41,650 nt of DNA, taken from positions 1 through 41,650 of the forward strand of contig CAMOCH010000001.1 of the NCBI GenBank assembly GCA_946610655.1. The letters run 5' to 3'. The stretch comes from an uncultured Clostridia bacterium (GTDB lineage: Bacteria > Bacillota > Clostridia > Christensenellales > UBA1242). This document shows, in pieces, positions 3,684-26,588 of this stretch. Both the position numbers and the translations under genes were made by a program. The notes beneath the pieces were generated by a model. That model was given only the letters and a program-made list of their open reading frames with translations. It ran no database searches and was not told the origin of the DNA. The number at the start of each line of letters is the position of its first letter. Position 1 is the stretch's first letter.

Positions 3684-3700
3684 AAATTTTGCGTTTTTTA
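3684..3700 (-). repeat. Stop-codon-overlapping motif copy 1 (minus: TAAAAAACGCAAAATTT)
   Basis: Plus strand reads AAATTTTGCGTTTTTTA. Its final TTA (3698-3700) is the dprA TAA stop. Confidence 0.85.
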
Positions 3701-4789
3701 GTAATTTACTGAATTAATTTTTTCATAGTAATTACCGGACAATTTTCTCACCTTTCCCATGATTTCAAGCATAGATAATTTGGTGCTTATTTCTTGCATA
3801 TTAAGTTTTAAATTTTCACATATTTCATCAATATGCATTTCTCCATCATTCAATAAATTTAAAATTTGACTACTTATTAAATCTAATTGAATTTCTGTTT
3901 TCTTTTCCTTGCGAGAAGCAATTCCAAATCTATCCAAAATATCTTTTGGAGAAAGTGTTAAGCACTCTGGATATCTTGATATCAATTCATTTGTTCCTTT
4001 GCTTTGCTCACTAGTAATATTTCCAGGAACACAAAACAATTCTCTACCTTGTTCAATTGCAAACATCGCCGTGCTTGTTGCTCCACTATGCACACCAGCC
4101 TCAACAACCAAAGTTCCTTCACTAAGTCCACTAATTATTCTATTTCTTCTAATAAATGTGTATTGTTTTGGTCTTATTGTTGGCCTATATTCACTAACAA
4201 GCAAACCTTTTTGAGCAATTTCTCTTGCTAGTCCAACATTCTCTGACGGATAAATATTATCAAGTCCACCAGCCAATACTGCAATCGTTTTGCCACCAGC
4301 TTTTAATGTTTCTCTTGCACAGCATGCATCAATACCATAAGAAAGACCACTAACAGTAACAAGACCTGACTTTGCTATTTTTGCAGAAAAATCATTGGCA
4401 ACATCTCTTCCATAAAAAGTTGGTTTTCTTGTTCCAACAATTGCAAAACATTTTTTGTTTAAAAGTTTTTTATCGCCGATTGTATATAAAACAAATGGAG
4501 GGTCATCAATTTGTTTAAGCAAATATGGATACTCTTCATCTAAAATAGTTATTGCTTCAACAGAATATTTTTTTAAAAAAGATTCAATTTCTGCTCTTAC
4601 TTCTTCAATATTTGTTTTACTAATTTTTTCTATATGTTCTTTGTCTAAGTAATATTTTAAGTCTGCCTTAGACAATTCAAATATTTTTGTTAATATGCTT
4701 AATCCATTAACAAGACATTCAATTTTTTTATATGGAACGTCTAAAAAATCTAAATATATTAAAGACAATGATTCATCACTAATTTTCAT
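3698..4789 (-). CDS. dprA: DNA processing/protecting protein DprA (Smf)
   Basis: 363 aa. Rossmann-like DprA core (AIVGTRKPTFYGRDVA, SGLSYGIDACCARETL, IAVLAGGLDNIYPSEN, RNRIISGLS, VVEAGVHSGATSTA) and a C-terminal winged-helix-like tail. SD GAAGGGA lies upstream. Confidence 0.9.
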   Translation of the reverse strand: MKISDESLSLIYLDFLDVPYKKIECLVNGLSILTKIFELSKADLKYYLDKEHIEKISKTNIEEVRAEIESFLKKYSVEAITILDEEYPYLLKQIDDPPFVLYTIGDKKLLNKKCFAIVGTRKPTFYGRDVANDFSAKIAKSGLVTVSGLSYGIDACCARETLKAGGKTIAVLAGGLDNIYPSENVGLAREIAQKGLLVSEYRPTIRPKQYTFIRRNRIISGLSEGTLVVEAGVHSGATSTAMFAIEQGRELFCVPGNITSEQSKGTNELISRYPECLTLSPKDILDRFGIASRKEKKTEIQLDLISSQILNLLNDGEMHIDEICENLKLNMQEISTKLSMLEIMGKVRKLSGNYYEKINSVNY

Positions 4790-4840
4790 ATTTTCCCTTC
4801 AATTTAATAAAAATCATATTAAATTTTAACTTTTTAAACC

Positions 4841-4857
4841 AAATTTTGCGTTTTTTA
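4841..4857 (-). repeat. Stop-codon-overlapping motif copy 2
   Basis: Plus strand reads AAATTTTGCGTTTTTTA. TTA at 4855-4857 is the comM TAA stop. Confidence 0.85.
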
Positions 4858-6381
4858 TAAAGATAATTTATCAATATTTCTATAACTTATTGCTTCCAAT
4901 ATATGGTTTGATTTAATATCTTTTGAGCCATCTAAATCTGCTATTGTTCTTGCAACTTTTAATATTCTTGTGTATCCACGAGCAGACATATTAAATTTTT
5001 CAAAAGCATTTGCAAGCAAGTTTTCACTCTCTTCATCTAACACACAATATTCTCTAACTTGCTTATTTGTCATTTTTGCATTGCAATAAATTCCTGTTCC
5101 TGCAAATCTTTGTTGTTGAATTTTCCTTGCTTTATCCACGCGCTTCTTAACTTCTGCGCTAGATTCTTCAAGTTTATCACTTTTTAAATCTAGAAAAGCA
5201 ACTCTATCAACATCAACTTTTATATCAATTCTATCAAGAAGTGGTCCAGAAATTCTTTTTAAATATTTAGAAATTTGGGTTGGTGAGCATGTGCACACCA
5301 AATCTTTACTTCCATAATTTCCACATGGACATGGATTCATGCTTGCAACCAATATAAAGTTGGCTGGATACTCATATGTTCCAGACGCACGAGAAACTGT
5401 TACAACGCCATCTTCAAGTGGACCACGAAGCGTTTCTATGGTTGCCCTTGAATATTCTGGCATTTCATCCAAAAACAAAACCCCATTATGTGCTAAACTA
5501 ACTTCTCCTGGTTTTGCATCTTTGCCGCCACCAATTAAACTAACGTTTGTTGCTGTGTGATGAGGACTTCTGAATGGTCTTGTTGTAACAACACCTTTGT
5601 TTGAGTCTAACACACCAGCGATACTATGTATTTTTGTTATTTCTAGAGCTTCATCAAAAGTCAAATCTGGCAGTATCCCAGGAACACATCTAGCAAGCAT
5701 TGTTTTTCCTGCTCCAGGAGGCCCTGCCATCAAAATATTATGCCCACCACTAACAGCAATTTCCATTGCTCTTTTAACTGCATACTGACCTTTTACTCTT
5801 GCAAAATCTTCTTTAATGTAATCATTGTGTTCAACTTTCCATTCGTTATTTTCAACTTTTTCAAGGTTACCTGCACCATTTAGAAAGTCGCAAACTTCTT
5901 TTAAATTTTTTGCAGCATAAACATCAATGCCGGTTATATAGCTGGCTTCTTTTTGATTATCAAACGGAATAATAAAGCTTTTAAAGCCTTTTTCCTTGGC
6001 ACTAATAAGAAGTGGCAAAATTCCTCTGACTGACTTAACATTTCCATCAAGGCCAAGTTCTCCAAAATATATATAATTTTTTGCAGCCAGTTCTTTAACT
6101 TGTTCACTTGCAACCAATATGCTTATTGCAATGGCGAGATCAAAACTTGGTCCCTCTTTTTTTGCACCGGCTGGAGCCAAATTAACTATCACTTTTGATT
6201 TTGGAAATTGAAACATACTATTTTTGATTGCAGACTGAACTCTTTCTCTGCTTTCTTTAACAGCTGTATCTGCAAGCCCAACAATATCGTAGCCAGGAAG
6301 ACCCCTGTTGATATCAACTTCAACATCAACTTTATATCCAGAAAGCCCAGAGAGCCCAAAACTATTTACTTTTGCTAACAT
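4855..6381 (-). CDS. comM: Mg-chelatase-like AAA+ ATPase ComM/YifB
   Basis: Lon-protease-like N-domain, Walker A (MAGPPGAGKTM), Walker B (VLFLDEMPE) and a ChlI-like C-terminus. The track ORF starts at 6438. MLAKVNSFGLSG at 6381 is preceded by SD AGAAGGAA and matches family N-termini. Confidence 0.9.
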   Translation of the reverse strand: MLAKVNSFGLSGLSGYKVDVEVDINRGLPGYDIVGLADTAVKESRERVQSAIKNSMFQFPKSKVIVNLAPAGAKKEGPSFDLAIAISILVASEQVKELAAKNYIYFGELGLDGNVKSVRGILPLLISAKEKGFKSFIIPFDNQKEASYITGIDVYAAKNLKEVCDFLNGAGNLEKVENNEWKVEHNDYIKEDFARVKGQYAVKRAMEIAVSGGHNILMAGPPGAGKTMLARCVPGILPDLTFDEALEITKIHSIAGVLDSNKGVVTTRPFRSPHHTATNVSLIGGGKDAKPGEVSLAHNGVLFLDEMPEYSRATIETLRGPLEDGVVTVSRASGTYEYPANFILVASMNPCPCGNYGSKDLVCTCSPTQISKYLKRISGPLLDRIDIKVDVDRVAFLDLKSDKLEESSAEVKKRVDKARKIQQQRFAGTGIYCNAKMTNKQVREYCVLDEESENLLANAFEKFNMSARGYTRILKVARTIADLDGSKDIKSNHILEAISYRNIDKLSL

Positions 6382-6409
6382 ATTTATTCCTTCTTTATTT
6401 GATAAAATA

Positions 6410-6438
6410 ATTTTAACACATATAATTGTTATTGGCAA
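6410..6438 (-). promoter_or_regulatory. Candidate sigma-A promoter for comM-dprA
   Basis: Minus strand reads TTGCCA, 17 nt, TAAAAT, with TGT immediately upstream of the -10 (extended -10 like). Confidence 0.5.
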
Positions 6439-6475
6439 TAATTTTATCGAACATTTTTTCTATAAATATTTTTGC

Positions 6476-6505
6476 AATAAAAAAAACTGGGGGTCTCCCA
6501 GTTTT
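6476..6505 (-). terminator. Rho-independent terminator after rpsU
   Basis: Minus strand reads AAAACTGGG-AGACC-CCCAGTTTT followed by a T-run. It starts 5 nt after the rpsU stop. Confidence 0.8.
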
Positions 6506-6509
6506 GCTT

Positions 6510-6689
6510 TTAGCCTTTACGAGCGCGTTTTCTTGCAGCTTCGCTCTTTTTCTTTTTAGCAACAGAAGGTTTAACATAAGCTTCGCGTTTACGGATATCA
6601 CCAATGATACCATCTTTTTGACATTTACGTTTGAAACGTTTGATAGCGCTTTCTACGTTTTCATTTTCGCCTACTTTAACGGTTGACAT
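6510..6689 (-). CDS. rpsU: 30S ribosomal protein S21
   Basis: 59-aa ORF not listed as such in the track: [59 protein letters not shown]. It has a strong SD (GAGGAGGTG) 6 nt upstream. The position after mtaB matches Bacillus. Confidence 0.9.
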
Positions 6690-6728
6690 GTTTTCACCTC
6701 CTCTTATAAAAAATCTCTAACGAAAAGA

Positions 6729-6757
6729 ATCTTATCACAAGGCATTAATTTTGTCAA
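6729..6757 (-). promoter_or_regulatory. Candidate sigma-A promoter for rpsU
   Basis: Minus strand reads TTGACA, 17 nt, TAAGAT. It begins 5 nt after the mtaB stop. Confidence 0.5.
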
Positions 6758-6761
6758 GTGA

Positions 6762-8039
6762 TTAATCACAAATTTGGCACTTTGCCCCGTCCATCATAAG
6801 TTCATTAAGCTTTACATTAACAATTGTGTTACCAGCAAGTTCTTTTGTTCTATTTTTTTCTATATAGCACTTAATGTAATTGTCTGTGTGAGCTGTATAA
6901 TATTCTCCGTCTGTGGTTTCAATAATAACCTTTTTAACGGCATCTTTTGCTATGTTTTGTTTTATAAATTCATCATGACCTGCTGCAGACAACGCTTTAA
7001 GTTTCCACACTCTGTCTTTTACACCATCTGCAACATTCTTAAATTTGGCTGCCACTGTGCCATCTCTTTTTGAATATGGAAACACATGCATTTCAAAAAA
7101 GTTTGCTTTTTTGCAAGTTTCGTAAGTTTCATCAAAAAGTTCTTCTGTTTCGGTTGGAAAACCTACAATAACATCAGTAGTTATTGCAGCAAGTGGAAAA
7201 TATTTTCTTATAAGTTCAACTTTGCCCAAAAACTCTTCTTTTGTGTAGTGCCTATTCATATCTTTTAAAACTTTGTTTGAACCACTTTGCATAGACAAAT
7301 GAAAATGTGGACAAAAATATTCATCTGTCAATAAATATTTCAAAAATTCATCATCAATAATATTTACTTCAAGCGATGAAAATCTGTATCGCATTTTTTG
7401 CTTTACTGAAGAGTCGTTAACAGATTTAATAAGTTTTGCAACATCAACCAAACTTGTGCCGTCATCAAAATCTTTTCCGTAACCAGACAAGTTTATTCCA
7501 GCAAGAACCACTTCATTAACCCCAGAGTTTTGCATGTTTAAAAGCTCATTTTTAAGTTCTGCAAGTGATCTAGATTTTTCTCTTCCACGAACATATGGAA
7601 TCAAACAATATGTGCAAAAATTGTTGCAGCCATCTTGACACTTTAACACTCCTCTGGTTCTGTTTGAAATATGTTCGTTTGAATTTATCATTTTAACATT
7701 ATTATCACTACATATTTTTGCAGCAATTTGAATTTTATTTTGTGTGCCAATAACAAATTTAACATTTGGTATTTTTGAAAAATGTTCACTGTTATTTTCA
7801 CTTGCGCAACCTGCAACATACACATCTGCTTTTGGATTTATTTTGAGAAGCTTTGTTATCATGTTGCGGCTTTTTCGTTCACCTTCATTAGTTACAGCAC
7901 AAGTGTTAACAAAATATACATCTGCAAATTCGTGACCAAAAACAACAGAAAAACCACTTGCAGTAAGAACCCCTGCAATGGTGTCTGACTCGTATTGATT
8001 GACTTTGCAACCAAGATTTACTATTGCGACTTTTTTCAT
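6762..8039 (-). CDS. mtaB: tRNA t6A37 methylthiotransferase MtaB (MiaB-like radical SAM enzyme, YqeV family)
   Basis: 425 aa. N-terminal UPF0004 domain (VNLGCKVNQYES), radical-SAM CxxxCxxC (CNNFCTYCLIPYVRG) and a TRAM-like C-terminus. It shows synteny with rsmE and rpsU. Confidence 0.85.
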   Translation of the reverse strand: MKKVAIVNLGCKVNQYESDTIAGVLTASGFSVVFGHEFADVYFVNTCAVTNEGERKSRNMITKLLKINPKADVYVAGCASENNSEHFSKIPNVKFVIGTQNKIQIAAKICSDNNVKMINSNEHISNRTRGVLKCQDGCNNFCTYCLIPYVRGREKSRSLAELKNELLNMQNSGVNEVVLAGINLSGYGKDFDDGTSLVDVAKLIKSVNDSSVKQKMRYRFSSLEVNIIDDEFLKYLLTDEYFCPHFHLSMQSGSNKVLKDMNRHYTKEEFLGKVELIRKYFPLAAITTDVIVGFPTETEELFDETYETCKKANFFEMHVFPYSKRDGTVAAKFKNVADGVKDRVWKLKALSAAGHDEFIKQNIAKDAVKKVIIETTDGEYYTAHTDNYIKCYIEKNRTKELAGNTIVNVKLNELMMDGAKCQICD

Positions 8040-8090
8040 TTTTTCTCCATTTTTTAATGATTTATATATATTTTTTCACTTTTTTTATGT

Positions 8091-8107
8091 AATTTTTGCG
8101 TTTTTTA
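8091..8107 (-). repeat. Stop-codon-overlapping motif copy 3 (one mismatch)
   Basis: Plus strand reads AATTTTTGCGTTTTTTA. TTA at 8105-8107 is the rsmE TAA stop. Confidence 0.8.
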
Positions 8108-8824
8108 CTCTAAATACTGACTTATCACAGACACACCCAAAATTGCTGCTGTTTCAGTTCTAAGTATTCTTTTGCCAAGACTAACTATTTTTGCTCCAGC
8201 ACTTTTTAATGCATCAATTTCTTCATTTGAAAAGCCACCTTCTGGACCAATTACTATTGCAACATTTTGGTTTTGTTTGATTGCTGGCAAATAATCTTTT
8301 AGTAGCAAGTTTTCTTCATTTTCATAAAAAACAATAAAGTGATCATATTTTTTTACACTAGCCACAACATCTTTAAACGACATTACACCTTGCACATTTG
8401 TAAGTTTACTTCTGCCACATTGTTTGCACGCCGAAACGGAAACGCTTTCAAGCTTATCAAGTTTGCCTGTGTTTGATTTAACATCACAAAATTTACTTTC
8501 AAAAACAACCATGTTGCTTGCACCAATTTCGGTTATTTTTTGCATGATAAGAGAAAGTTTATCTCCTTTTGCGAGCGCCTGAAACAGATCTATTTTTTGC
8601 ACAGGATTTGCTATGTTTTTTGTTTTGCTTATTAACTTAAGTTCGGCATTTTTTTTGTTAAGTTTTGCAACTGTTGCTACGTAATTATAATCATCGCCAC
8701 AAAAAAGTTCAACATTTTCACCTTCTCTTGTGCGCATTACATTTGCTAAGTGATGAAATTCATCACCTTCCAAAACCACATTTTCGCCGTCTATTTTATC
8801 AATATAATATCTTTTTAATTTCAT
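8105..8824 (-). CDS. rsmE: 16S rRNA (uracil1498-N3)-methyltransferase RsmE
   Basis: 239 aa. PUA-like N-terminus (HHLANVMR) and a SPOUT C-terminus (IVIGPEGGFSNEEI...LGKRILRTETA). Confidence 0.85.
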   Translation of the reverse strand: MKLKRYYIDKIDGENVVLEGDEFHHLANVMRTREGENVELFCGDDYNYVATVAKLNKKNAELKLISKTKNIANPVQKIDLFQALAKGDKLSLIMQKITEIGASNMVVFESKFCDVKSNTGKLDKLESVSVSACKQCGRSKLTNVQGVMSFKDVVASVKKYDHFIVFYENEENLLLKDYLPAIKQNQNVAIVIGPEGGFSNEEIDALKSAGAKIVSLGKRILRTETAAILGVSVISQYLE

Positions 8825-8860
8825 AACACACTTATTATATCAAATTTATAATAAAATGCA

Positions 8861-8888
8861 ATAAAAAATGGTGCGTTTGCACCATTTA
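8861..8888 (-). terminator. Rho-independent terminator after dnaJ
   Basis: Minus strand reads AATGGTGC-AAAC-GCACCATT followed by TTTTATT. It starts 4 nt after the dnaJ stop. Confidence 0.65.
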
Positions 8889-8891
8889 TAA

Positions 8892-10031
8892 TTATATCTT
8901 ACTTTGATATGCTTTCTTTTTTGGATATTCTTTGTCAAGAATTGATTTGTCAAGTTCTTCAACAAGTTCTCGTTCTTTCTTTGAAAGAGTTTTTGGCATT
9001 TCAACAATAATCTTTGCAAACAAATCACCATATGTATTTTTATTAAGAACTTTTGTACCCTTTCCTTTAACTGTTATTATGCTGCCCGTTTGAGTGAGTG
9101 CAGGAATTGTGATTGTTAACTTTTCATTAATACCTGCAATATCAATTTTTTTGCCAAGAAGTGCGTCAGTAAATGAAACATAAACATCTTCAAAAACATC
9201 ATATCCATCACGCTTTAGCACTTTGTGCGGAGAAACTTTTATAACAACTTGAAGATTTCCTGCAGGACCTCCATTCTTACCGGCTTCTCCCTGTCCACGA
9301 AGATTAAGTATGGTTCCATCTTCAACTCCACCAGGAATGTTGATTTCTATATTTCTATTTACTCTCGTGTAACCGTTACCCGAACATTTTTCACATTTTT
9401 CTTTTATTCTCTTTCCTGTTCCACGACATTCTGGACATGTGGTTTCTGAAAGCATTTGTCCAAACATTGTATTTTGTCTTGTTGTTACAACACCGCTTCC
9501 ACCACATCTTGAGCATGTTGTGTATGCCGTACCATTTTTTGCACCTGTGCCATTACATGCGCTGCAATTTTCTGCTCTCGATAAATTAATATTTTTCTTA
9601 ACACCAAAAGCTGCTTCAACAAAGTCAAGATTTATTCTTGCTTGAATGTCAGCACCTTGCATTGGAGCATTTGGATTACGTCTGCTTTGTCTGCCAAAGC
9701 CACCGCCAAAAATGTCTCCAAAAATATCTCCAAATCCACCAAATTGTGAAAAGTCAAAACCGGCACCACCACCGGCACCACCACCTGCGCCGCCACCAAA
9801 GTTAGGCATTCCGTTTGGATCGCCATAATTATCGTAGTTTGAACGTTTTTGCTTGTCTGACAAAACTTCGTATGCTTCGTTTACTTCTTTTAATTTTTCG
9901 GCAGCAGTACTATCACCCGGATTCAAATCTGGGTGATATTTTTTTGCCATTTGGCGATATGCCTTTTTTATTTCGTCATCTGTGGCCGTTTTTGAAACGC
10001 CAAGAATATTATAGTAGTCTTTACTTGCCAT
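8892..10031 (-). CDS. dnaJ: Molecular chaperone DnaJ
   Basis: J-domain with HPD ([11 protein letters not shown]), a G/F region, four CxxCxGxG zinc motifs and a C-terminal substrate-binding domain. Confidence 0.95.
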
Positions 10032-10251
10032 ATGCTCTCTTTCAATTATTTATAATTATATTAATTTAAACAAAGAAGCAAACTCTTCAAATTATATCAA
10101 ATTTAAAGGGTTTGCAGTTGTTTTACATACTCTTTTCTTAGGTTTTTTTATTCAAGTATATCTAATTAAAGAGTTTGTAGGGGTTTGGGGAGAATCTCAC
10201 TCCCCAAGTTTCTTTTGATACTTTTCTTTAAATTAAAGAAAAGTTAATTCA

Positions 10252-12096
<1,845 letters not shown>

Positions 12097-12781: not shown

Positions 12782-13771
12782 TTATATCTCCTTGTCCGTT
12801 AATTCTTTTATTGTATCCGAAACCTCTTTTAAAACAGATATTGCTTTGGCGTAGTCCATACGAACTGGTCCAACAACATTTGCTGAAAGTGTTTTGTTAC
12901 CCTTGAGTTTATATGTTGCTGAAACAATTGATAAGTCGTTGTCTCCAACACTTATTTTAATTTCAACATCTTCACCACCATCTGATGTGTTATTTATTAT
13001 TTCATCACTATCCACAAGCTTGATTGCATTTTTCAATTTTTGAATGTTTTCAAATTCTGGATAATCCATAAATTTTTCTTTGCCTGCAACTGCAATTTGT
13101 GGTCTTTTTTCATACTTACCTGCAATTGCAAATATGATTTTGGTGAAAAGTTCTTTATATTTTATTAGTTCCTGTGAAATAAGGTATCTTTCTTCTTCAA
13201 GAGCTTCAATTGGTTTTCCCGCAAAAAGTTTTGTTAAAATTGTTGCTGCTTCTTCCAAATCTTTTTGAGATGTATTTTCAAGTGAAACAATTTCACTAAT
13301 CACACCAATATCTGTCACAACAACAACCAATTTTGAAGTGCTAGAAAGTTCAACCAATTTTATGTTTTCAATAATGGCTCCAGTTCCACCCATGTAAACA
13401 ACTGATGCATAATTGCACGCATCAGATATTGTTTGAGCTGAACGAGTCATAATTTCATTCAAATTAACAAGTTTGTTCGTAAAATTTGACTGAATTTGCG
13501 CAACTTCTTTTTTAGTAAGTTTTTTGGTTGGCATCAACTCTTGAACATACTTTTTATATCCTTCAGCAGTTGGCACTCTTCCACTTGATGTGTGAATGTG
13601 TGTTATGTAGCCAAGTTCTTCCAAACTCATAAGCTCATTTCTTATGGTTGCAGAACTTACATCTGGCATAAACTTTTCTTGAATAGTTTTGCTAGAAATT
13701 GGCTCACCATTTTCCATACCAGCTTCAACAACTGCTTTAAGAATTTTTTCTTTTCTTTTTGAAAGTTTCAT
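12782..13771 (-). CDS. hrcA: Heat-inducible transcription repressor HrcA
   Basis: 329 aa. Winged-helix N-terminus (LSKRKEKILKAVVE...ISSKTIQEK...SSATIRNELMSLEELGYI..HTSSGRVPT). It is the first gene after the CIRCE element. Confidence 0.9.
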   Translation of the reverse strand: MKLSKRKEKILKAVVEAGMENGEPISSKTIQEKFMPDVSSATIRNELMSLEELGYITHIHTSSGRVPTAEGYKKYVQELMPTKKLTKKEVAQIQSNFTNKLVNLNEIMTRSAQTISDACNYASVVYMGGTGAIIENIKLVELSSTSKLVVVVTDIGVISEIVSLENTSQKDLEEAATILTKLFAGKPIEALEEERYLISQELIKYKELFTKIIFAIAGKYEKRPQIAVAGKEKFMDYPEFENIQKLKNAIKLVDSDEIINNTSDGGEDVEIKISVGDNDLSIVSATYKLKGNKTLSANVVGPVRMDYAKAISVLKEVSDTIKELTDKEI

Positions 13772-13821
13772 TTTTATCCTTTTTTATTATATGCGAATAA
13801 ATTTGAATTTATACACATTTT

Positions 13822-13848
13822 TTAGCACTCTTTGTGTTTGACTGCTAA
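13822..13848 (-). promoter_or_regulatory. CIRCE operator (HrcA binding site)
   Basis: Reads TTAGCACTC-N9-GACTGCTAA, one mismatch to the consensus TTAGCACTC-N9-GAGTGCTAA. It lies between the promoter and the hrcA start. Confidence 0.85.
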
Positions 13849-17996: not shown

Positions 17997-18006
17997 AAAG
18001 CAGCAC

Positions 18007-18040: not shown

Positions 18041-18045
18041 ATTTA

Positions 18046-18630: not shown

Positions 18631-18660
18631 AACAATATCCTCTCGTTATTTTATAGCCAT

Positions 18661-18689
18661 ATTATATATTAATAATTATTAGTTGTCAA
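18661..18689 (-). promoter_or_regulatory. Consensus sigma-A promoter for the 194-aa gene
   Basis: Minus strand reads TTGACA, 17 nt, TATAAT, a perfect consensus. Confidence 0.65.
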
Positions 18690-18712
18690 TAATTTTACTA
18701 TTAATTAGACTC

Positions 18713-18739
18713 ATAAAAAAATCGGCAAACGCCGATTTT
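18713..18739 (-). terminator. Rho-independent terminator after the pnuC-like gene
   Basis: Minus strand reads AAAATCGGC-GTTT-GCCGATTTT followed by TTTTATG. Confidence 0.7.
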
Positions 18740-18743
18740 ATTT

Positions 18744-19703: not shown

Positions 19704-19713
19704 TTTCTCCCCA

Positions 19714-21879
19714 CTATTTGTTAACAATTAGTTCACTTGGTTTACTTGTGTAATATATGTTAAGTTTATGTAATGCTCTGGTGCAAACAACATAAAATAG
19801 ATTTCTCTCTTCCAGTGTATAATTTTTATCATTTGCATCACTAACAATAACAGCATCAAACTCTAGCCCTTTTGACAAATATGATGGCATAACCATAATT
19901 TTATCTGAATTAAAGGTTTTATCACGCTTACTATAAACTTTAACAGAACCTTGCAATTTTTTATCTATCACATATTTTTTAATTTCATCAGTTTCTGCTT
20001 GATTTTTAGTGATTATTGCAACAGATTTATATTGATTTTTCAAGTTGAGTGCATCTTTCAATAAAATCATATATTTATCTTTAACCGTCAATTTCTTCAC
20101 AAGCACAGGATCACCATGTCTTTCTATTTGATTGTATAATGGACTATCAGCTACTACTGTTTTTGCAAAGGAGTTTATCTCGGTTGTTGAACGATATGTT
20201 TTGCTTAAATACATACTTTCACTTCTAATTTTTTCTCTTGCCTCAGCAAAAATATTTAAAACCGAATCAAAGTTTTTATATGATGCAAAAGGCATTATAT
20301 TTTGATTTAAGTCACCAAGCAAAGTTATGTTTGCATTTTTGAAAATACTTGCAATAATTTTATATTGCATCAATGAATAGTCTTGTGCCTCATCAATCAT
20401 CACAAATTTAATTTGGTTTTGCGCGTTTGACCCAATCAATCTATTTTTGAAATACAAATATGCACTGACATCTTCATATGGCATGATGCCTTTATTAATG
20501 TTTGATTGTGTATAGTTGAATATTTCTGTTAGTTCATTAATTGTAAATCTGTTTTGTTTTGAAGTGCCAACAATATTATAAATCTCTTCAATTAAGTTAA
20601 CAAAATCATCTCTGTTTGAATATAAGCGATTATACAAATCTTTTGGTTTTATCTTTGATATTTGCAAGTTTTTACGCATTTTTGCAAGAATATTTTTGTT
20701 ATTTTGCGTTTTTATAGTTGTGTGCAATAATATCTTTTCAACAATTTTTTGATATTGTTTAAGATAACTTATGCCCTCTGAATCAAACTCGTTAGCTATC
20801 TTTTTCAGGTAATTTTTTTCTATTATAACTTTACCATCAACAACAATATCTTTTATGCCCAAAACCTCTTCTCTAATTTGTTCAAGATATTTTTCTATTA
20901 AATGTAAATACACTGTGCTAAATTTTAATTTAATAGAATTATAAACAACATCACGGGTTTTACCATAAATTTTTTCATATATGTCTGTTAAATTTCCAGA
21001 AACTTTATATTCAGTTAAAAATGTTTTAACATAGTCCATAAAAGTTGTTTGATAAACATTATCTTCACCAATTTGAGGAAGAACATTTGAAATGTAGTTT
21101 GAAAAAATATCATTTGGCGACAATATAAGCACATTACTATTGTTTATTTTATCTTTTAATGAATACAAAATATATGCAATTTTGTGCATTGCAACACTAG
21201 TTTTACCACTGCCAGCAGGACCACTAACAACAAGCACATCAACATCATTTTTTCTGATAACCTTGTTTTGCTCTTTTTGTATTGTGCTAACAATGTTCTT
21301 CATTTTGCCGTTTGTGTTTTCTTGGAGCATTTGTCTAAGCACATCATCAATAATTTGCATGTTTGTGTCAAACACTTCAATAATCTTATCTTTTTCAATT
21401 TTATATTGTCTTTTAAGGACAATCTTTCCTTTAATCTCATCTCCATTTGGAGTCACGTAACTTGCTTCACCCATTTCGTAATCATAGAACATACCACAAA
21501 TTGGAGCACGCCAGTCATAAACATAAAAACATTCATCATTTTCAAGTGTGGCAATACCTAAATATACAGGCAAAACATCTTCACCATCATCAAAATCAAA
21601 TCTGGCAAAATAAGCACTTTTTATCATGCGTCTATAACTTTTGAGTTTATCGGCAATTGTATTTCTGCTATATGACCTTCTATGAATATCTGCAATTGCA
21701 TATGTAAATTCAACATCAGATAATCTGTTTGTTGCATCCCAAGCATACTTCATTTCATCTTGAAGATCATCATTCAAATCGGCAACTTTACCACTGCTTT
21801 TTTCTATCTCTTTATTCAAAATATAGAGCACAGTTTTTAAGTAATCTTTTTCTTTCTTAAGTTCCTTATTATCTATCAT
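19714..21879 (-). CDS. helD: HelD-type UvrD-family helicase (helicase IV, RNA polymerase recycling factor)
   Basis: 721 aa. HelD-like N-terminus (YFARFDF...VYLGIATL...VYDWRAPICGMFYDYE), Walker A (VSGPAGSGKTSVAMHKI), a DEAQD box (VMIDEAQDYS) and C-terminal UvrD motifs (SKGLEFDAVIV...LFYVVCTRALHKL). Confidence 0.8.
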   Translation of the reverse strand: MIDNKELKKEKDYLKTVLYILNKEIEKSSGKVADLNDDLQDEMKYAWDATNRLSDVEFTYAIADIHRRSYSRNTIADKLKSYRRMIKSAYFARFDFDDGEDVLPVYLGIATLENDECFYVYDWRAPICGMFYDYEMGEASYVTPNGDEIKGKIVLKRQYKIEKDKIIEVFDTNMQIIDDVLRQMLQENTNGKMKNIVSTIQKEQNKVIRKNDVDVLVVSGPAGSGKTSVAMHKIAYILYSLKDKINNSNVLILSPNDIFSNYISNVLPQIGEDNVYQTTFMDYVKTFLTEYKVSGNLTDIYEKIYGKTRDVVYNSIKLKFSTVYLHLIEKYLEQIREEVLGIKDIVVDGKVIIEKNYLKKIANEFDSEGISYLKQYQKIVEKILLHTTIKTQNNKNILAKMRKNLQISKIKPKDLYNRLYSNRDDFVNLIEEIYNIVGTSKQNRFTINELTEIFNYTQSNINKGIMPYEDVSAYLYFKNRLIGSNAQNQIKFVMIDEAQDYSLMQYKIIASIFKNANITLLGDLNQNIMPFASYKNFDSVLNIFAEAREKIRSESMYLSKTYRSTTEINSFAKTVVADSPLYNQIERHGDPVLVKKLTVKDKYMILLKDALNLKNQYKSVAIITKNQAETDEIKKYVIDKKLQGSVKVYSKRDKTFNSDKIMVMPSYLSKGLEFDAVIVSDANDKNYTLEERNLFYVVCTRALHKLNIYYTSKPSELIVNK

Positions 21880-21906
21880 TTGTCACTCCTTTTGCATGTT
21901 TTAGCA

Positions 21907-23205
21907 CTATTTTTTATGATTATTCTTTATATTTTGCAGTTTTTGCTCAGAAAGTTTTATACTCTTTTCACTTCCATTTTCACTTGGTATATAGTAAACA
22001 TGGTCTTTAATTTCATCAGGCAAATATTGTTGATTAACATATCCACCATAGTCATGAGGATACTTGTATGCTGGTCTTTTTTCATTAAAATAATTTGTAT
22101 TTTTTAAATGACTTGGAACACTATCGTTATATGTTTGCTCAACGTCATCTGCAGCCAAATGCATTGCCGTTATCACACTGTTAGATTTTGGGCTCATACA
22201 AACATATATTATTGCATGCGTCAAAGGAATCAATCCTTCTGGCACACCCATCTTTTCAAGTGCAGTCATAGCCGAAACACTAACAACCATGGCTTGTGAA
22301 TTTGCAAGACCAACATCTTCACTTGAATGAGCAATCAGTCTGCGTGCAATTATAAGAGGATCACACCCTGCTTTAATTAATCTTTGACTCCAATAAACAG
22401 CAGCATCTGCATCGCTACCTCTAAGACTTTTACAAAACGCAGAAAGCATATCATAATAAATGTCTGTATCCATAGATATCACTCTGCCAGCCGTGCAGTC
22501 GTTAATAATCTCTTTGGTTATGGTAACTTTGCCATTTTTTGCTGGAGTTGAAAGCACAGCAAGTTCAAGATTACCAAGTGCAACTCTTGCATCACCATTA
22601 CAAGTTAATATTAGTTGTTCAAATGCATCGTCTTCAAGTTTAACATTGTATTGTTTTAAACCCTTTTCACTATCTATCGAATCAACAACAATCTTTTTAA
22701 TATCTTCTTTAGTCAATGAGTAAAATTGAAAAATTCTGCATCTACTTACAATAGCCCTGGTCATATTGGTATATGGATTCTCGGTTGTTGAACCAATAAA
22801 AATAATATAACCCTTCTCAATAGCTTCAAGCATGCAATCAGATTGTGCTTTACTCCATCTGTGACATTCATCAAGAAGCAAAAATGTTTTGCGCCCAGAG
22901 ACTTCTTTTTCATGTCTGGCATTATCTATAACTTTTTTAACATCAGCAACTCCACTAGAAACTGCATTGAGTGCAACAAAAAAACTATTTGTTGTTTTTG
23001 CAATAATATTTGCAAGGGTTGTTTTACCTGTTCCAGGTGGACCATAAAAAATACAGCTGCCAAGTTTATCAGCCATGATTGCTCTTCTTAAAAGCGAATT
23101 TTTGCCAACAATATGACTTTGTCCAACAAATTCATCAAGAGATGTTGGACGCATACGCTCAGCAAGAGGTGCTGTTTTAATAATATTTTCATCAAACATG
23201 TTCAT
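21907..23205 (-). CDS. rarA: Replication-associated recombination protein RarA/MgsA (AAA+ ATPase)
   Basis: Contains LAERMRPTSLDEFVGQ, Walker A (GPPGTGKTT), Walker B (LLLDECHRW) and a MgsA C-domain (YDMLSAFCKSLRGSDADAAVYW). The track start at 23244 is a TTG. An ATG at 23205 or 23199 fits family N-termini. Confidence 0.9.
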   Translation of the reverse strand: MNMFDENIIKTAPLAERMRPTSLDEFVGQSHIVGKNSLLRRAIMADKLGSCIFYGPPGTGKTTLANIIAKTTNSFFVALNAVSSGVADVKKVIDNARHEKEVSGRKTFLLLDECHRWSKAQSDCMLEAIEKGYIIFIGSTTENPYTNMTRAIVSRCRIFQFYSLTKEDIKKIVVDSIDSEKGLKQYNVKLEDDAFEQLILTCNGDARVALGNLELAVLSTPAKNGKVTITKEIINDCTAGRVISMDTDIYYDMLSAFCKSLRGSDADAAVYWSQRLIKAGCDPLIIARRLIAHSSEDVGLANSQAMVVSVSAMTALEKMGVPEGLIPLTHAIIYVCMSPKSNSVITAMHLAADDVEQTYNDSVPSHLKNTNYFNEKRPAYKYPHDYGGYVNQQYLPDEIKDHVYYIPSENGSEKSIKLSEQKLQNIKNNHKK

Positions 23206-23211
23206 AAAACT

Positions 23212-23240
23212 ATTATATACTATGTATATAATTTTGGCAA
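23212..23240 (-). promoter_or_regulatory. Candidate sigma-A promoter placed so that rarA would be (near-)leaderless
   Basis: Minus strand reads TTGCCA, 17 nt, TATAAT. The -10 ends only 6 nt before the ATG at 23205, and no SD lies in between. Confidence 0.4.
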
Positions 23241-23246
23241 ACAATT

Positions 23247-23960
23247 TTAAATCTTAAAATTATTGTATATGTAGAGAATGTTCGCAACTACTATTTTGAT
23301 TTTTTTATCAATATCATTTAATTCTTCAATAAAATAAAAAACGCATTTTCTATAATTAATATTCGAAATATTGCCAATTTTTACTAGATTTTTATTATAT
23401 TTTATTAATCCATAGTAAAAGGCATTTGAATATGTTGTTGATGAAACACAAGTTGTGACTGCCCCTAAATTTATATCTTTTTGAATTCTCTTCATATAGT
23501 TACATAACAACCTTAACCTATTATATAATTCAATCAATATTAAAGCTGGTAAAATATTAAGCTCTTTTTTATATAAATCATTAACTTTGATTTTTGCATT
23601 AATAAATTTTGATATGTTAATATTCCCTTGCATCAAAAGTTTATCAATACAAATTTTAGCTATATATTCAACTAAAGCACGCCCTTTTGCACTTCTATAA
23701 CGGCAAATTTGCGAATTTATTTTTCGTGACAAATTAATTGATATATTAAATAATTGTTGTTTGTAGCACTTAAAATTCTCTTCAGGGAATAGTGAGTAGT
23801 CAGTATTTAGTATTTTATAAATTAACTTATCTATTTTTATCGGTTTTAGCAATTTGTAGTAAATTTTTGTATTACATAGGTCATTTTTTAGTTTTTCCAA
23901 GCATTTTTTGCGTTTTTTATTTTTATGACTAATTAATTGGTTAATATCATTTATGTTCAT
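23247..23960 (-). CDS. Orphan hypothetical protein (Lys/Asn/Ile-rich, predicted helical)
   Basis: A 237-aa open frame in the most AT-rich part of the window, where stop codons are frequent, so it is unlikely to be open by chance. There is no SD, no recognisable motif and no transmembrane segment. Confidence 0.45.
   Translation of the reverse strand: MNINDINQLISHKNKKRKKCLEKLKNDLCNTKIYYKLLKPIKIDKLIYKILNTDYSLFPEENFKCYKQQLFNISINLSRKINSQICRYRSAKGRALVEYIAKICIDKLLMQGNINISKFINAKIKVNDLYKKELNILPALILIELYNRLRLLCNYMKRIQKDINLGAVTTCVSSTTYSNAFYYGLIKYNKNLVKIGNISNINYRKCVFYFIEELNDIDKKIKIVVANILYIYNNFKI
23329..23349 (+). repeat. Extended motif copy W (AAAATAAAAAACGCA core)
   Basis: The 15-nt core at 23331-23345 is identical to part of copies X and Z. 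It is inverted relative to X and lies inside the orphan ORF. Confidence 0.6.
23904..23928 (-). repeat. Extended motif copy X (minus: TCATAAAAATAAAAAACGCAAAAAA)
   Basis: Contains the TTTTGCGTTTTTTA core. It is a 21/21 inverted match to 25233-25253 and a 15/15 direct match to 24461-24475. It lies in the first codons of the orphan ORF, just downstream of the rnpB terminator. Confidence 0.7.
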
Positions 23961-23978
23961 ATATAATAAATTTTAAAC

Positions 23979-24006
23979 AAAAAAGCAGGATGATAAACAT
24001 CCTGCC
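23979..24006 (-). terminator. Rho-independent terminator of rnpB
   Basis: Minus strand reads GCAGGATG-TTTAT-CATCCTGC followed by T6. It directly follows the RNase P RNA 3' end. Confidence 0.8.
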
Positions 24007-24007
24007 C

Positions 24008-24344
24008 TAAGATAACCTATAAGCCGAGTTCTGTCATTTAAGATGATCATCTATCTAGTTATGCTGTTGCCAACATAATCAAGCGATTTTGGGAGCGAGC
24101 GAGCAACTCTTATGCCCCACATCTTGCACCACACTGAGTTTACAGCAGAAGTATGTCACCATACTAATGAGTGGGCTTTTACTCCACTTTTCCACCTGTG
24201 CCCTTTACAGCTAAGCTGTCAGTTGGCAGTCTATTTCTGTTGCCCTTTTCCTAATGTCACCATTGCTTGACGTTATCAAGAGTGTTTGCTCTATGGTGCT
24301 CGGACTTTCCTCACCACAAGTGGCGTAATCATCCAGTTATCTTA
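24008..24344 (-). ncRNA. rnpB: RNase P RNA (bacterial, type-A-like), about 337 nt
   Basis: The minus strand has the universal blocks GAGGAAAGTCCGAGCACCATAGAGCA near the 5' end and AGATAGATGA...ACAGAACTCGGCTTATAGG near the 3' end. These parallel E. coli GAGGAAAGUCCGGGCUCCAUAGGGCA and ACAGAACCCGGCUUAUCGG. A P1 stem forms between TAAGATAAC (5') and GGTTATCTTA (3'). The gene has its own promoter and terminator. Confidence 0.88.
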
Positions 24345-24349
24345 TAAAT

Positions 24350-24378
24350 AAGATATCACAAAGTTTAGATTTTGTCAA
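24350..24378 (-). promoter_or_regulatory. Candidate sigma-A promoter of rnpB
   Basis: Minus strand reads TTGACA, 17 nt, TATCTT. The predicted transcription start falls at the first base of the P1 stem. Confidence 0.5.
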
Positions 24379-24452
24379 TGTAAATTTTAATTGTTAGAAT
24401 AAGGCTCTGCTTTATATAATTTACATAGCATATTTTATATATATTTTACTAA

Positions 24453-24475
24453 ATTTGCAGTTTTTATTTTTATGA
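24453..24475 (-). repeat. Extended motif copy Y (minus: TCATAAAAATAAAAACTGCAAAT)
   Basis: A direct repeat of X. The 15/15 block TTTTTATTTTTATGA lies at 24461-24475 on the plus strand. It begins 4 nt after the sigK stop. Confidence 0.6.
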
Positions 24476-24478
24476 ATT

Positions 24479-25177
24479 TTATTTATATAAATCATCTTTT
24501 GCATATTTTTTTATAACTTCTAGAGCGTGTTTTTCTATTCTACTAATATATGATCTTGATATACCAAGCATATTACTTATTTCCATTTGAGTGTATTCAC
24601 TATATCCACAAATACCATATCTCATATATATCACTTTTCTTTCTCTCTCGGTCAATTTTTGATCAATGATTTTTTCAATTTGCTCAAATGCAATTTTATT
24701 ACTTATCTTTTCATCCAGGTCTTCATACTTATCTGGAATCACTTCGAGTAGTGACATCTCATTTCCATCTTTATCAGCCATAATTGCATCTTCAAGATAA
24801 ACTTGGCAGTTGTGTTTTTTGTTTGCTCGAATGTACATTAAAATTTCATTATCAATACACCTGGTTGCATAAGTTGAAAAGCTGTTATTTTTATTAGTGT
24901 TAAAATTTTTAATCGCTTTTAGTAATCCAATTGATCCTATTGCAATCAATTCATCTTGTGCCATATTCTGTTTATATTTTAAAGCAACATGCGCCACCAA
25001 TCTCATATTGTGTTTAACAAGTTTTTCTTCAGCCTCTTTGTCACCCAATTTATATTGCTCAAAAAGTTGTTTCTCTTCTTCACTACTAAGTGGTTTTTCA
25101 AATGCTTTATTTTCTTTTATTCTTCCAAACAAAAGCATTATTTTTGAAAATAATAAAGACAATAATTTAAATATCAT
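24479..25177 (-). CDS. sigK: Sporulation-type RNA polymerase sigma factor, SigK-like, with N-terminal pro-sequence
   Basis: 232 aa. It aligns by eye to B. subtilis pro-sigma-K. IKENKAFEKPLSSEEEKQLFEQ..GDKEAEEKLVKHNMRLVAHV corresponds to VKNNAFPQPLSSSEEKKYLEL..GDEHARNMLIEHNLRLVAHI. DKDGNEMSLLEVI corresponds to DKEGNEISLIDVL. GISRSYISRIEKHAL forms region 4.2. The hydrophobic 20-aa leader resembles a pro-peptide. The ORF is uninterrupted. Confidence 0.75.
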   Translation of the reverse strand: MIFKLLSLLFSKIMLLFGRIKENKAFEKPLSSEEEKQLFEQYKLGDKEAEEKLVKHNMRLVAHVALKYKQNMAQDELIAIGSIGLLKAIKNFNTNKNNSFSTYATRCIDNEILMYIRANKKHNCQVYLEDAIMADKDGNEMSLLEVIPDKYEDLDEKISNKIAFEQIEKIIDQKLTERERKVIYMRYGICGYSEYTQMEISNMLGISRSYISRIEKHALEVIKKYAKDDLYK

Positions 25178-25232
25178 ATTTTACTCCTTGATAAATTTTA
25201 TTATTTAATTAGACAAAATATGACAATTTGTG

Positions 25233-25262
25233 TAAAAATAAAAAACGCAAAAATTGCGTTTT
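25233..25262 (-). terminator. Rho-independent terminator after the U32 gene; contains extended motif copy Z
   Basis: Minus strand reads AAAACGCAA-TTT-TTGCGTTTT followed by TTATTTTT. Plus strand 25233-25253 (TAAAAATAAAAAACGCAAAAA) is the inverted copy of X. Confidence 0.7.
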
Positions 25263-25309
25263 AAAATTGAAATTTTATATGTTTTTAAGCGATTTATGAG
25301 AAAATTTTG

Positions 25310-26530
25310 CTATTTTCTTAAAATGTCACCTATTTGGATTTTACTAACATTACCAAAAATTTTAACCTTTGCTTGAACCAATTTTGCATCAACTATGTCA
25401 TTATTTTTATCATCAACAAGTTTCTCTATTGTTAATGTTGAACCCACTGGCAAGTTTGGAGATAGAATTTCCAAAGTGTCGCCAACGCTAAATTTATTTC
25501 TTTGTTCAACAACAATATAATCATCAGTTTTATCAACAACAATTGCAACAAATTTACTATCTTGTTGTTGATTAGAAGTTTCCAAATTTTGTCTTAGTTT
25601 GCCATCATTAATCATAAACCCAGTTGTGTAATCTCTGTGACTAGCTTTATAAAGTTCATCAACCAAATTTTGTGCAACCTTATATGGTTTATTATTTTTT
25701 ACGCATTCATAATAATAATCAATTGCTCTTCTATAACTGTTAACAACTGTTGCAACATAATATGGTGATTTCATTCTGCCTTCTATTTTAAAACTAACCA
25801 CACCTGCTTCAGCAATTTTATCAAGATACTCAATAAGCATTAAATCTTTGCTATTGAAAATATATGTTCCTCTTTCATCTTCTTCAACGGTAAGTTTTTG
25901 GTCAGGGCGAGATTCTTCACTGACATTATACTTCCATCTGCAAGCTTGCACACATTCTCCATGATTACTATCTCTGCCTGTTAGATAGTTAGATAACAGG
26001 CATCTGCCACTATATGAAATACACATTGCTCCATGAACAAACGCTTCAAGTTCAACATCAGGACAAAAATCATGTATTTTTTGGATTTCTTCAAGAGATA
26101 ATTCTCTTGCAAGAACAACTCTTGATGCACCCATATTCTTGTATGCTTGAACAGCATATTTATTTGTTGTGTTTGCTTGGGTTGAAATATGAATATTCAT
26201 TTTTGGAAAATGTTCTTTAATAAATGAGAACACACCCATATCTGAAACCAAAACTGCATCAACGCCAGCATCTTGAAGTTCTTTTACATAACTTTCAAGA
26301 CCATCAAAATCATTATCTCTTGCATAAACATTAATTGTTACATAGGCTTTAACTCCATGCTTATGAGCATAGCTGGCAGCCTCTTTAACTTCGAAATTAT
26401 TAAAGTTTGTTCCGTATGCTCGAAGACCATAATTTTTGCCAGCAAAATAGACAGCATCTGCTCCAAAATAGATTGCTGTCTTCAATTTTTCCATGTCGCC
26501 AGCTGGCGCTAAAAGTTCAATTTTTTTCAT
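25310..26530 (-). CDS. Peptidase U32 family protein (YrrO/TrhP-like, prephenate-dependent tRNA U34 hydroxylation factor)
   Basis: 406 aa. U32 signature (EAFVHGAMCISYSGRCLLSNYLTGRDSNHGECVQACRW). It lies directly downstream of a YrrM/TrmR-like methyltransferase, as in the B. subtilis yrrM-yrrN-yrrO cluster. Confidence 0.85.
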   Translation of the reverse strand: MKKIELLAPAGDMEKLKTAIYFGADAVYFAGKNYGLRAYGTNFNNFEVKEAASYAHKHGVKAYVTINVYARDNDFDGLESYVKELQDAGVDAVLVSDMGVFSFIKEHFPKMNIHISTQANTTNKYAVQAYKNMGASRVVLARELSLEEIQKIHDFCPDVELEAFVHGAMCISYSGRCLLSNYLTGRDSNHGECVQACRWKYNVSEESRPDQKLTVEEDERGTYIFNSKDLMLIEYLDKIAEAGVVSFKIEGRMKSPYYVATVVNSYRRAIDYYYECVKNNKPYKVAQNLVDELYKASHRDYTTGFMINDGKLRQNLETSNQQQDSKFVAIVVDKTDDYIVVEQRNKFSVGDTLEILSPNLPVGSTLTIEKLVDDKNNDIVDAKLVQAKVKIFGNVSKIQIGDILRK

Positions 26531-26571
26531 ATTTTCCTTTGTTTTAATATATTTTTTATATTTTTTTAGTT

Positions 26572-26588
26572 AAATTTTGCGTTTTTTA
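26572..26588 (-). repeat. Stop-codon-overlapping motif copy 4
   Basis: Plus strand reads AAATTTTGCGTTTTTTA. TTA at 26586-26588 is the TAA stop of the methyltransferase gene. Confidence 0.85.

Follow-up and report, generated by a model that had tools for sequence, protein, structure and literature searches.

A 13-base word, AAAAAACGCAAAA, recurs at gene boundaries in the DNA analyzed here, a stretch of 41,650 nucleotides from an uncultured Clostridia bacterium (positions 1 to 41,650 of contig CAMOCH010000001.1, assembly GCA_946610655.1; hereafter the window). Several genes have the word starting right at their stop codon. Given its strand bias, its boundary position, and its deep conservation, we conclude that the word marks a functional cis-element. 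Our tentative proposal, to which we give somewhat less than an even chance, is that it acts at the level of DNA as an UP-element-like anchor which, together with phased A-tracts, would form compact internal promoters inside operons. The overlap with stop codons would be a side effect rather than a new way of ending genes.

The window has a G+C content of 31.7%, and its minus strand holds nearly all of the genes. Read on that strand, the 14-mer TAAAAAACGCAAAA occurs in six exact copies and one copy with a single mismatch. These seven matches compare with 0.28 ± 0.57 expected at up to one mismatch (100 dinucleotide shuffles, none of which reached seven). Chance is excluded as their source, as a preliminary description of this DNA had estimated from base composition. 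Four exact copies were listed in that description and all four are present, with the plus strand reading AAATTTTGCGTTTTTTA at 3684-3700, 4841-4857, and 26572-26588, and AATTTTTGCGTTTTTTA at 8091-8107. It had also correctly recognized the TAA of each copy as the stop codon of a gene: on the plus strand, TTA closes the minus-strand open reading frames (ORFs) of dprA (3698-4789), comM (4855-6438), rsmE (8105-8824), and an O-methyltransferase of the TrmR type (26586-27185). Such an overlap is seen for four of the six exact window copies, whereas among 122 chance copies only 4 terminate an ORF of 80 codons or more (Fisher p = 9e-5). The chance copies of the 14-mer were drawn from unrelated genomes, among the matches listed in a scan of a genome collection; scanning the collection with the 17-mer yielded, among the matches listed, only single chance hits in unrelated genomes.

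Each of the four copies begins a minus-strand module at the junction between two genes. Module S1 (3600-3700, core TAAAAAACGCAAAA at 3687-3700) starts with the dprA stop codon and continues through an A-rich spacer up to the start of an S51 peptidase gene. Module S2 (4790-4857, core at 4844-4857) separates comM from dprA, S3 (8040-8107, core at 8094-8107) separates rsmE from mtaB, and S4 (26531-26588, core at 26575-26588) separates the trmR-like O-methyltransferase gene from a trhP-like U32 peptidase gene, in every case with the TAA of the core as the stop codon of the upstream gene. The spacer is 55 nt long at the trmR-like junction, 65 nt at both the comM and the rsmE junction, and 89 nt at the dprA junction, where the called ATG is 98 nt away. 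In S3, the core is followed by ATTACA, 17 nt, and TATATA. The 13-mer TAAATCATTAAAA, previously noted as common to two of the spacers, is indeed found at 3645-3657 and 8052-8064, and in both it begins exactly 29 nt past the 14-mer.

Sequence collections yielded near-identical metagenome contigs (L001, plus L211 and L305 at 97-98% identity) as well as relatives at 43-59% DprA identity that carry the label “MAG: Clostridia bacterium” (MAG, metagenome-assembled genome). Syntenic loci from seven relatives (L202, L205, L208-L210, and L212-L215) served as the comparison set, and the window together with these loci makes up a clade sample of 210.7 kb, 8% of it intergenic, that consists of loci rather than whole genomes. 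The window, L208, L209, and L210 all have the word at both the comM and the rsmE stop codon, and L202 has it at the comM stop codon. The window and L210 also have it at the dprA stop codon, and the window and L212 at the end of trmR. The same junctions thus carry the word despite DprA identities of 53-57% and flanking intergenic sequences that cannot be aligned, and five lineages keep 13 or 14 of its 14 bases. Among 80 loci from more distant Clostridia (MtaB identity of 46% or less) found in a metagenome scan, the 12-mer occurred once only, and the rsmE-mtaB region of those distant loci with less than 40% G+C held no analogous motif. This near-absence indicates that the motif is specific to the clade.

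The length of a junction depends on whether it carries the word. Junctions with the word measure 55-99 nt, and those without it are mostly 7-13 nt long, made up of a stop codon, a Shine-Dalgarno sequence, and an ATG. Examples of the short form are the comM-dprA junctions of L205 (9 nt) and L215 (7 nt) and the trmR-trhP junction of L214 (13 nt). Exceptions among junctions without an intact word are rsmE-mtaB in L205 (44 nt) and trmR-trhP in L213 (66 nt). In the latter spacer (L213 9932-10000), TAAAAAC is followed by 32 nt that include the hairpin CTATTAA-AAA-TTAATAG and then by AACGCAAAAAT, as if a small insertion had split the motif. ComM, DprA, RsmE, and TrmR end at homologous residues in both junction states, and therefore the TAA is the native stop codon of each gene rather than one supplied by the element. 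The preliminary description had asked whether the C-terminus of a protein is gained or lost together with the motif; the motif-bearing spacer varies as a unit, but the protein ends do not.

The treatment of TAA as part of the motif must also be amended, in that the AA is kept whereas the leading T is replaced by C, G, or A where the motif does not provide a stop codon. In the rsmE gene of L209, the T is replaced by G and the ORF extends five codons through the word. In the trmR gene of L212, a small indel shifts the word to another frame; the ORF reads through, and the word is retained. Copies in L214, L215, and L208 lie 11-57 nt past the stop codon and are preceded by C. Two of them (L215 and L208) are found between a complete terminator and the next gene, and in L215 the extended -10 sequence TGTATAAT comes after the copy. 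From this variation in the leading base, we take A6-CGC-A4 as the functional word, with TT after it in most cases. Degenerate second copies were observed 32 nt (L202 9928-9975) and 43 nt (L210 20650-20710) downstream of a first one, the 32-nt interval corresponding to about three helical turns. The first copy of the L210 pair, TAAAAGCGCAAAAA, overlaps a stop codon at a junction that is orthologous to none of the others.

In the clade sample, copies are not scattered without regard to strand or gene ends, a pattern that the preliminary description had named as evidence against the motif. The exact 11-mer occurs at 1.3 copies per kb outside genes and at 0.046 per kb in 194 kb of coding sequence, a 28-fold difference. 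Single extragenic copies are found in the sense orientation 19 times and in the antisense orientation once (p = 4e-5). Twelve of the 19 start exactly at a stop codon, and another two fall in the final six codons of a gene. The overall density of the word is about 1 per 7 kb.

The sequence after the word has a regular structure of its own. An ungapped alignment of 11 modules on CGC gives the consensus TAAAAAACGCAAAATTnAnAAnAAAAAAnTnAAAAAnnATATn. Among 13-15 modules, the 3′ ends of A-runs of at least four bases cluster at -1, +6, +19/20, +28/29, +39/41, and +48/50 relative to the C of CGC. The statistic for this register is 559, compared with 253 ± 42 for circular shifts of the spacers, and none of 2,000 shifts reached 559. 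Mean spacing is about 10.25 bp, or one helical turn, and the modules contain at least three tracts of at least four bases about 10-11 bp apart, as is expected of phased A-tracts. Given this register, the DNA is predicted to be intrinsically curved. GTG at +21 and AAAAAT at +25 were considered as separate elements and rejected: both are enriched, but the positions were picked post hoc and two of the GTG cases are orthologous. They are treated here as part of the A-tract register.

The two largest islands that interrupt the A-tracts are TTnAnA, right after the word, and TATAT, 17 nt later, which occupy the positions of sigma-A -35 and -10 elements. In about 70-90% of the 11 aligned modules, TT directly follows the word, and the post-word hexamers agree with TTGACA at only one to five of six positions. 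The rsmE-mtaB spacer of the window can be aligned over about 45 nt with that of L209 (TTAACA, 17 nt, TATATC), and the aligned portion includes both islands. On the sense strand, the spacers are 54% A and essentially unstructured as RNA. No motif-bearing junction is shorter than 55 nt, which is about the minimum for a promoter and a short leader. At two other junctions of the window, lepA-hemW and S51-topA, a canonical TTGACA lies a few bases past TAAAAA, and the overlap of an A-tract with TAA is thus the local style in a genome that is 8% intergenic.

We propose that A6-CGC-A4, usually with TT, anchors the upstream end of a compact DNA module, about 50-60 bp long, between co-directional genes, and that this module would function as an internal, sub-operonic promoter. 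The anchor and the curved A-tracts would compensate for a weak -35 element, with the anchor taking the place of an UP-element proximal subsite or of a class-I/II activator site. It may be contacted by the RNA polymerase alpha subunit's C-terminal domain, by a hypothetical factor that reads the invariant CGC, or by both. Where the module substitutes for a translationally coupled junction of 7-13 nt, the downstream gene would gain its own transcription start. The TAA overlap would be a by-product of a compact genome in which no gap is left between the upstream ORF and the module, the native TAA giving the first two A's of A6. Elsewhere in the clade, the same word and an inverted copy of it form the stem of A/T-flanked hairpin terminators. 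We favor a promoter because of the helical register, the 55-nt minimum, the -35- and -10-like islands, the copies that follow terminators and precede genes, and the indifference of the word to reading frame. Of the explanations first offered, a gene-end or intercistronic signal such as an UP-like element therefore fits best, being strand-specific, extragenic, conserved, and accompanied by phased A-tracts with promoter-like islands; it may act on DNA or on RNA.

Several observations weigh against a promoter. The -35 and -10 elements are putative ones, assigned from sequence islands 17 nt apart. A consensus promoter scan gave counts of promoter-like sites no higher than those in shuffled sequences, and sliding -35/-10 scoring gave a periodic profile in which several peaks are nearly equal, because the A-tracts mimic both hexamers; the favored register is therefore not unique. 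In the near-identical contig L305, the change of TATATT to TATATC would weaken a -10 element. Terminator-like hairpins lie between the motif and the next gene at dprA-S51 in L210, rsmE-mtaB in L208, and trhP-sigK in L214. The strictly conserved CGC is unlike what binding by the alpha C-terminal domain alone would select. Compaction explains the zero-distance stop overlap of 12 of the 19 single copies only indirectly, and a ribosome-linked RNA signal predicts it also; an RNA-level role would likewise predict spacers that are 54% A and unstructured. In addition, the GTG and AAAAAT positions were picked after inspection of the data, and the copies at the comM junction are orthologous and hence not fully independent.

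Similarities to known promoter architectures are partial. Curved DNA with phased A-tracts lies upstream of promoters such as those of Clostridium perfringens plc and phage SP82 Alu156. The modules resemble these in having several A5-6 tracts about 10-11 bp apart beside a promoter-like site in a low-GC Firmicute, but their array is anchored to a sequence-specific 13-mer, recurs at many junctions, and runs into the presumed core promoter and leader. At E. coli rrnB P1, positions -46 to -38 form the proximal UP subsite, AAAAAARNR (quoted in PMC2801614). Like this subsite, the word presents A6 and then three non-A bases directly upstream of a -35-like hexamer, is orientation-specific, and would offset a weak -35 element. 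Unlike it, the module has an invariant CGC in place of RNR, an extra A4, and A-tracts through the presumed spacer, and the promoter is a predicted one here; with TTnAnA as the -35 element, the word would also sit about 2 bp further upstream. At B. subtilis trxA and trxB, Spx and the alpha C-terminal domain read AGCA at -45 to -42 and then a poly-A tract just upstream of the -35 element (PMC2801614). That Firmicute architecture, in which a cofactor reads GC and the alpha C-terminal domain reads the A-tract, shares with the module a required GC followed by an A-tract that abuts the -35 element (CGCAAAA-TT versus AGCAAAAAAAT). In the module, however, the GC would lie about 3 bp nearer to the -35 element and has A6 in front of it, and the genes served (mtaB, dprA, trhP, and a peptidase) do not form a thiol-stress regulon. 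The element is best filed as a lineage-specific variant of promoter-upstream or curved-DNA architecture with a sequence-specific component.

RNA structure distinguishes the stop-codon copies from a second arrangement of the word. The four stop-codon copies fold with minimum free energies of -0.5 to -5.3 kcal/mol (z from -1.0 to +0.7); the motif is unpaired in three of them and weakly paired in the comM copy (z = 0.03). A terminator scan of the window, which looked for a hairpin followed by a U-run, listed none of these four. The preliminary statement that the copies are not ordinary terminators thus holds for the four then reported but not for a palindromic double copy at 25232-25262 (minus strand), AAAACGCAA-TTT-TTGCGTTTT followed by a T-run. 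This sequence is a terminator-like hairpin that lies after trhP and upstream of a sigK-like gene, and the exact 14-mer at 25239-25252 on the other strand is one of its arms. It has the features of an intrinsic terminator, with a stem of nine pairs, a 3-nt loop, and the tail TTATTTTT, and its RNA folds at -7.8 kcal/mol (z = -2.9). A word and its inverted copy lie between trx and iscS in four relatives and between trhP and sigK in the window. L208 has full palindromes such as AAAAAAACGCAAAATTTTGCGTTTTTTT; those of L202, L205, and L209 are imperfect. The palindromes fold at -7.8 to -19.7 kcal/mol, with values of -12.7 and -19.7 for two from relatives. Because the imperfections are G·U wobbles in the sense RNA only, the palindromes act as RNA-hairpin terminators.

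A more elaborate arrangement was seen after trhP in L214 (11225-11330), where the word is followed by GTGCAAAACGCATGCAAAATCGCAG and then by a terminator hairpin whose left arm again starts with AAAATCGCA. There, AAAA(T)CGCA units recur at intervals of 29 nt and 12 nt, and the region could be a very short transcript or a compound terminator.

Comparison of near-identical strains reveals how the modules change over short times. Relative to L211 (97% identity), the comM-dprA spacer is the same but for one base, whereas at the dprA-S51 junction the word is unchanged and the next 29 nt are replaced. The S1 interior of L211 resembles the S3 spacer (rsmE-mtaB) of the window and has the same 29-nt distance to TAAATCATTAAAA. 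This swap and the likeness between non-orthologous spacers indicate that the modules behave as a paralogous family with occasional conversion. Between window positions 3609-3683 and L211 1845-1900, about 29-45 nt after the dprA-stop motif are nearly all different and the flanks are identical; the window version contains overlapping, mutually exclusive inverted repeats (TTTGAAT/ATTCAAA and AACCAT/ATGGTT). L305 (97.8% identity) differs in S4 by the one TATATT-to-TATATC change, and its palindrome is unchanged.

An alternative that we judge unlikely is that single-stranded UAAAAAACGCAAAA right after the stop codon acts in the polycistronic mRNA as a processing, stability, or protein-binding site that uncouples the two cistrons. 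For example, an endonuclease might act at the single G of this unstructured, A-rich segment, or the site might provide a ribosome standby or re-initiation platform. RNase Y of Staphylococcus and Streptococcus favors cutting after G in AU-rich single strands. Both the 19:1 sense bias and the placement of 12 of 19 copies exactly at the stop codon (with two more in the last six codons) are what such a signal would give, as are spacers that are 54% A and nearly free of structure (-0.5 to -5.3 kcal/mol). In L214, L210, and L208, moreover, the motif precedes a terminator-like hairpin and so falls within a 3′ untranslated region or intercistronic RNA. What argues for DNA instead is the A-tract register of about 10.25 nt on CGC, which is natural for a DNA helix and has no known meaning in RNA. 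Furthermore, a 14-nt site and a Shine-Dalgarno sequence would fit into about 30 nt, yet all motif junctions are at least 55 nt long, and complete terminators precede the L215 and L208 copies and should keep most upstream transcript from them. We know of no bacterial RNase with so long a recognition word. Somewhat less probable still is a gene-boundary punctuation signal read by a hypothetical sequence-specific factor of this Clostridia family, on DNA or on nascent RNA at the point of ribosome termination. Such a signal would delimit sub-operonic expression units across the genome, roughly once per 5-7 kb, and would also supply the building block of the clade's hairpin terminators; it would be a bacterial counterpart of the intercistronic punctuation of organelles and no ordinary promoter element.

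The modules could also be dispersed repeats, spread or homogenized by copying or gene conversion, in which the inverted doublets are hairpins, the singlets are half-units, and any effect on expression is secondary. They would then be comparable to the repetitive extragenic palindromic (REP) elements and REPIN doublets of proteobacteria or to miniature inverted-repeat transposable elements. REP elements frequently sit just after stop codons, and the likeness extends to short extragenic repeats just past stop codons that occur as singlets and as inverted hairpin doublets, with hundreds per genome if the density here is typical. This idea shares ground with the earlier suggestion of a miniature element that inserts at TAA, parts of which stand: a junction either has the whole spacer or lacks it, spacers at non-orthologous sites have the 14-mer, the 29-nt interval, and TAAATCATTAAAA in common, and the S1 interior was exchanged for S3-like sequence between 97%-identical strains. 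Other parts of it fail, in that the stop codon is native and a comparison of filled with empty junctions revealed neither inverted ends nor target-site duplications. The unit is not palindromic and single copies do not fold, no transposase or RAYT (REP-associated tyrosine transposase) was seen in 210 kb, and phage contigs have no copies beyond chance singles. In phage collections, the palindrome was not found and the 16-mer matched 89 loci once each, none with several matches, as chance would give. The same junctions are kept at about 55% DprA identity while the interiors cannot be aligned, which points to purifying selection on the 13-mer and not to a decaying selfish element. We therefore regard a repeat family as rather improbable.

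A further possibility, which we consider poorly probable, is that the word is a relic or partner of the terminator system, with its A-tract and CGC-A4 corresponding to the left arm of the A/T-flanked hairpin terminators found in the clade. The right arm would have been lost on operon fusion, and the left arm retained through its stop overlap or through modulation of read-through. The palindromes do occupy expected terminator sites (trx-iscS in four relatives and trhP-sigK in the window) and fold at -7.8 to -19.7 kcal/mol. However, a dead arm would have decayed at this divergence, whereas five lineages retain at least 13 of the 14 bases. Selection would also be expected on TAA only, the half-sites are unstructured, and the phased A-tracts downstream would be left unexplained.

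Least credible of all is a DNA-uptake sequence maintained by biased uptake and recombination in a competent lineage with comM and dprA, as the preliminary description had suggested. It is true that the word is over-represented across the clade, is conserved at orthologous and non-orthologous sites, adjoins comM and dprA, and forms inverted pairs in terminators, and that a few exact coding copies exist in either orientation (window 23906; L210 18839). Its AT-rich, helically phased flanks recall the tracts that follow the core of the extended uptake signal sequence of Haemophilus. Uptake sequences in Pasteurellaceae and Neisseria, however, occur roughly once per kb, compared with about 1 per 7 kb overall and 0.046 per kb of coding sequence in the roughly 0.2 Mb sampled here. 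In place of occurrence in both orientations, the word has a 19:1 bias, is locked to stop codons and fixed junctions, and is depleted 28-fold from coding sequence, where uptake sequences would be expected. The word is thus too sparse, too rare within genes, and too biased in strand and position to support this suggestion, and we know of no sequence-specific DNA uptake in Firmicutes. Conservation at orthologous sites across deep divergence separates the word from REP and REPIN elements.

If the modules are internal promoter cassettes, then a compact genome can toggle a junction between translational coupling over 7-13 nt and an autonomous transcription unit of 55-99 nt. The means would be one reusable element of about 55 bp, with a 13-base anchor that uncultured Clostridia of one gut and rumen family have kept in common. 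Annotation of these metagenome-assembled genomes could then use the motif as a practical guide to how operons are subdivided, and the factor that reads the invariant CGC could be sought through it. If the word instead acts on RNA, it would stand out among bacterial intercistronic signals for its length and conservation.

The window contains additional matches that the preliminary description overlooked, at 23906-23919, 25239-25252 (the palindrome arm), 34779-34792, and 20702-20715. The exact 14-mer at 23906-23919 (minus strand) lies in the ORF at 23247-23960, where it encodes KNKKRKK and its TAA is not in frame; in the L212 ortholog, the corresponding codons read TAAAAACCGCAAAA. This copy is probably a coding coincidence or a case of coding conservation and not an element. 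An A5 variant, ATAAAAACGCAAAA, at 20702-20715 (minus strand) encodes IKTQN in helD and reflects coding conservation because it is kept at the orthologous codons of L212. The copies at 23906 and 20702 and those in the dnaK genes of relatives were therefore rejected as elements, lysine-rich peptides conserved in orthologs accounting for them. The one-mismatch copy, TAAAAAACGCAATA, is on the plus strand at 34779-34792, antisense within the ORF at 33310-35775.

Other roles for the word were dismissed by eye. For -1 frameshifting on A AAA AAC, the heptamer is out of frame relative to the stop codon; the motif cannot pair with the downstream Shine-Dalgarno sequence, both being purine-rich; and an antisense terminator or promoter is contradicted by the lack of a partner arm and of conserved upstream sequence. 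Sites for cre, CodY, PurR, Spo0A, ComK, and sporulation sigma factors mismatch at key positions of their consensus sequences. A literature string search with the 12-mer returned unrelated hits only, and at the Rfam gathering threshold the sole match in the window was the class A RNase P RNA (24004-24344).

The gene order of the window is lepA-hemW-hrcA-grpE-dnaK-dnaJ-rsmE-mtaB-rpsU-comM-dprA-pepE-like-topA. Together with a sigK-like sigma factor gene and the class A RNase P RNA, this order points to a spore-forming member of the Clostridia as the host. The rsmE-mtaB-rpsU-comM synteny is broken in L202, where an insertion upstream of comM (5629-8188) brings in a Rep-like gene (PF23343) and a serine recombinase. 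Upstream of hrcA (12782-13771), at about 13800-13835 on the minus strand, the inverted repeat TTAGCAGTC-N9-GAGTGCTAA resembles CIRCE (controlling inverted repeat of chaperone expression) and sits downstream of a TTGACA/TATTAT promoter, as expected for the HrcA operator. The sigma factor gene at 24479-25177 (minus strand) is nearest to sporulation SigK, slightly under the NCBIfam cut-offs (248 versus 252 bits). Ahead of the gene lie the palindromic motif copy and a GTCATATT box similar to a -35 element of the sigma-E type.

The RNase P RNA (minus strand, 216 bits) is served by its own TTGACA-type promoter and by a strong terminator at 23982-24008, the flanks reaching about 24378 on one side and 23982 on the other. 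Its gene lies between the sigK-like gene and the ORF at 23247-23960 (minus strand), which encodes 237 amino acids with no Pfam or NCBIfam match and has an ortholog in L212. The ATG of this ORF lacks a Shine-Dalgarno sequence and is 22 nt past the RNase P terminator, and its start is doubtful. Finally, large ORFs without Pfam matches (667, 821, and 471 amino acids) are clustered with small BhlA/holin-like genes in the window (30175-37190, minus strand), in L212 (1-6320), in L213 (1-6229), and in L214 (1-3506). This cluster is syntenic and is kept beside RNase J in all relatives.

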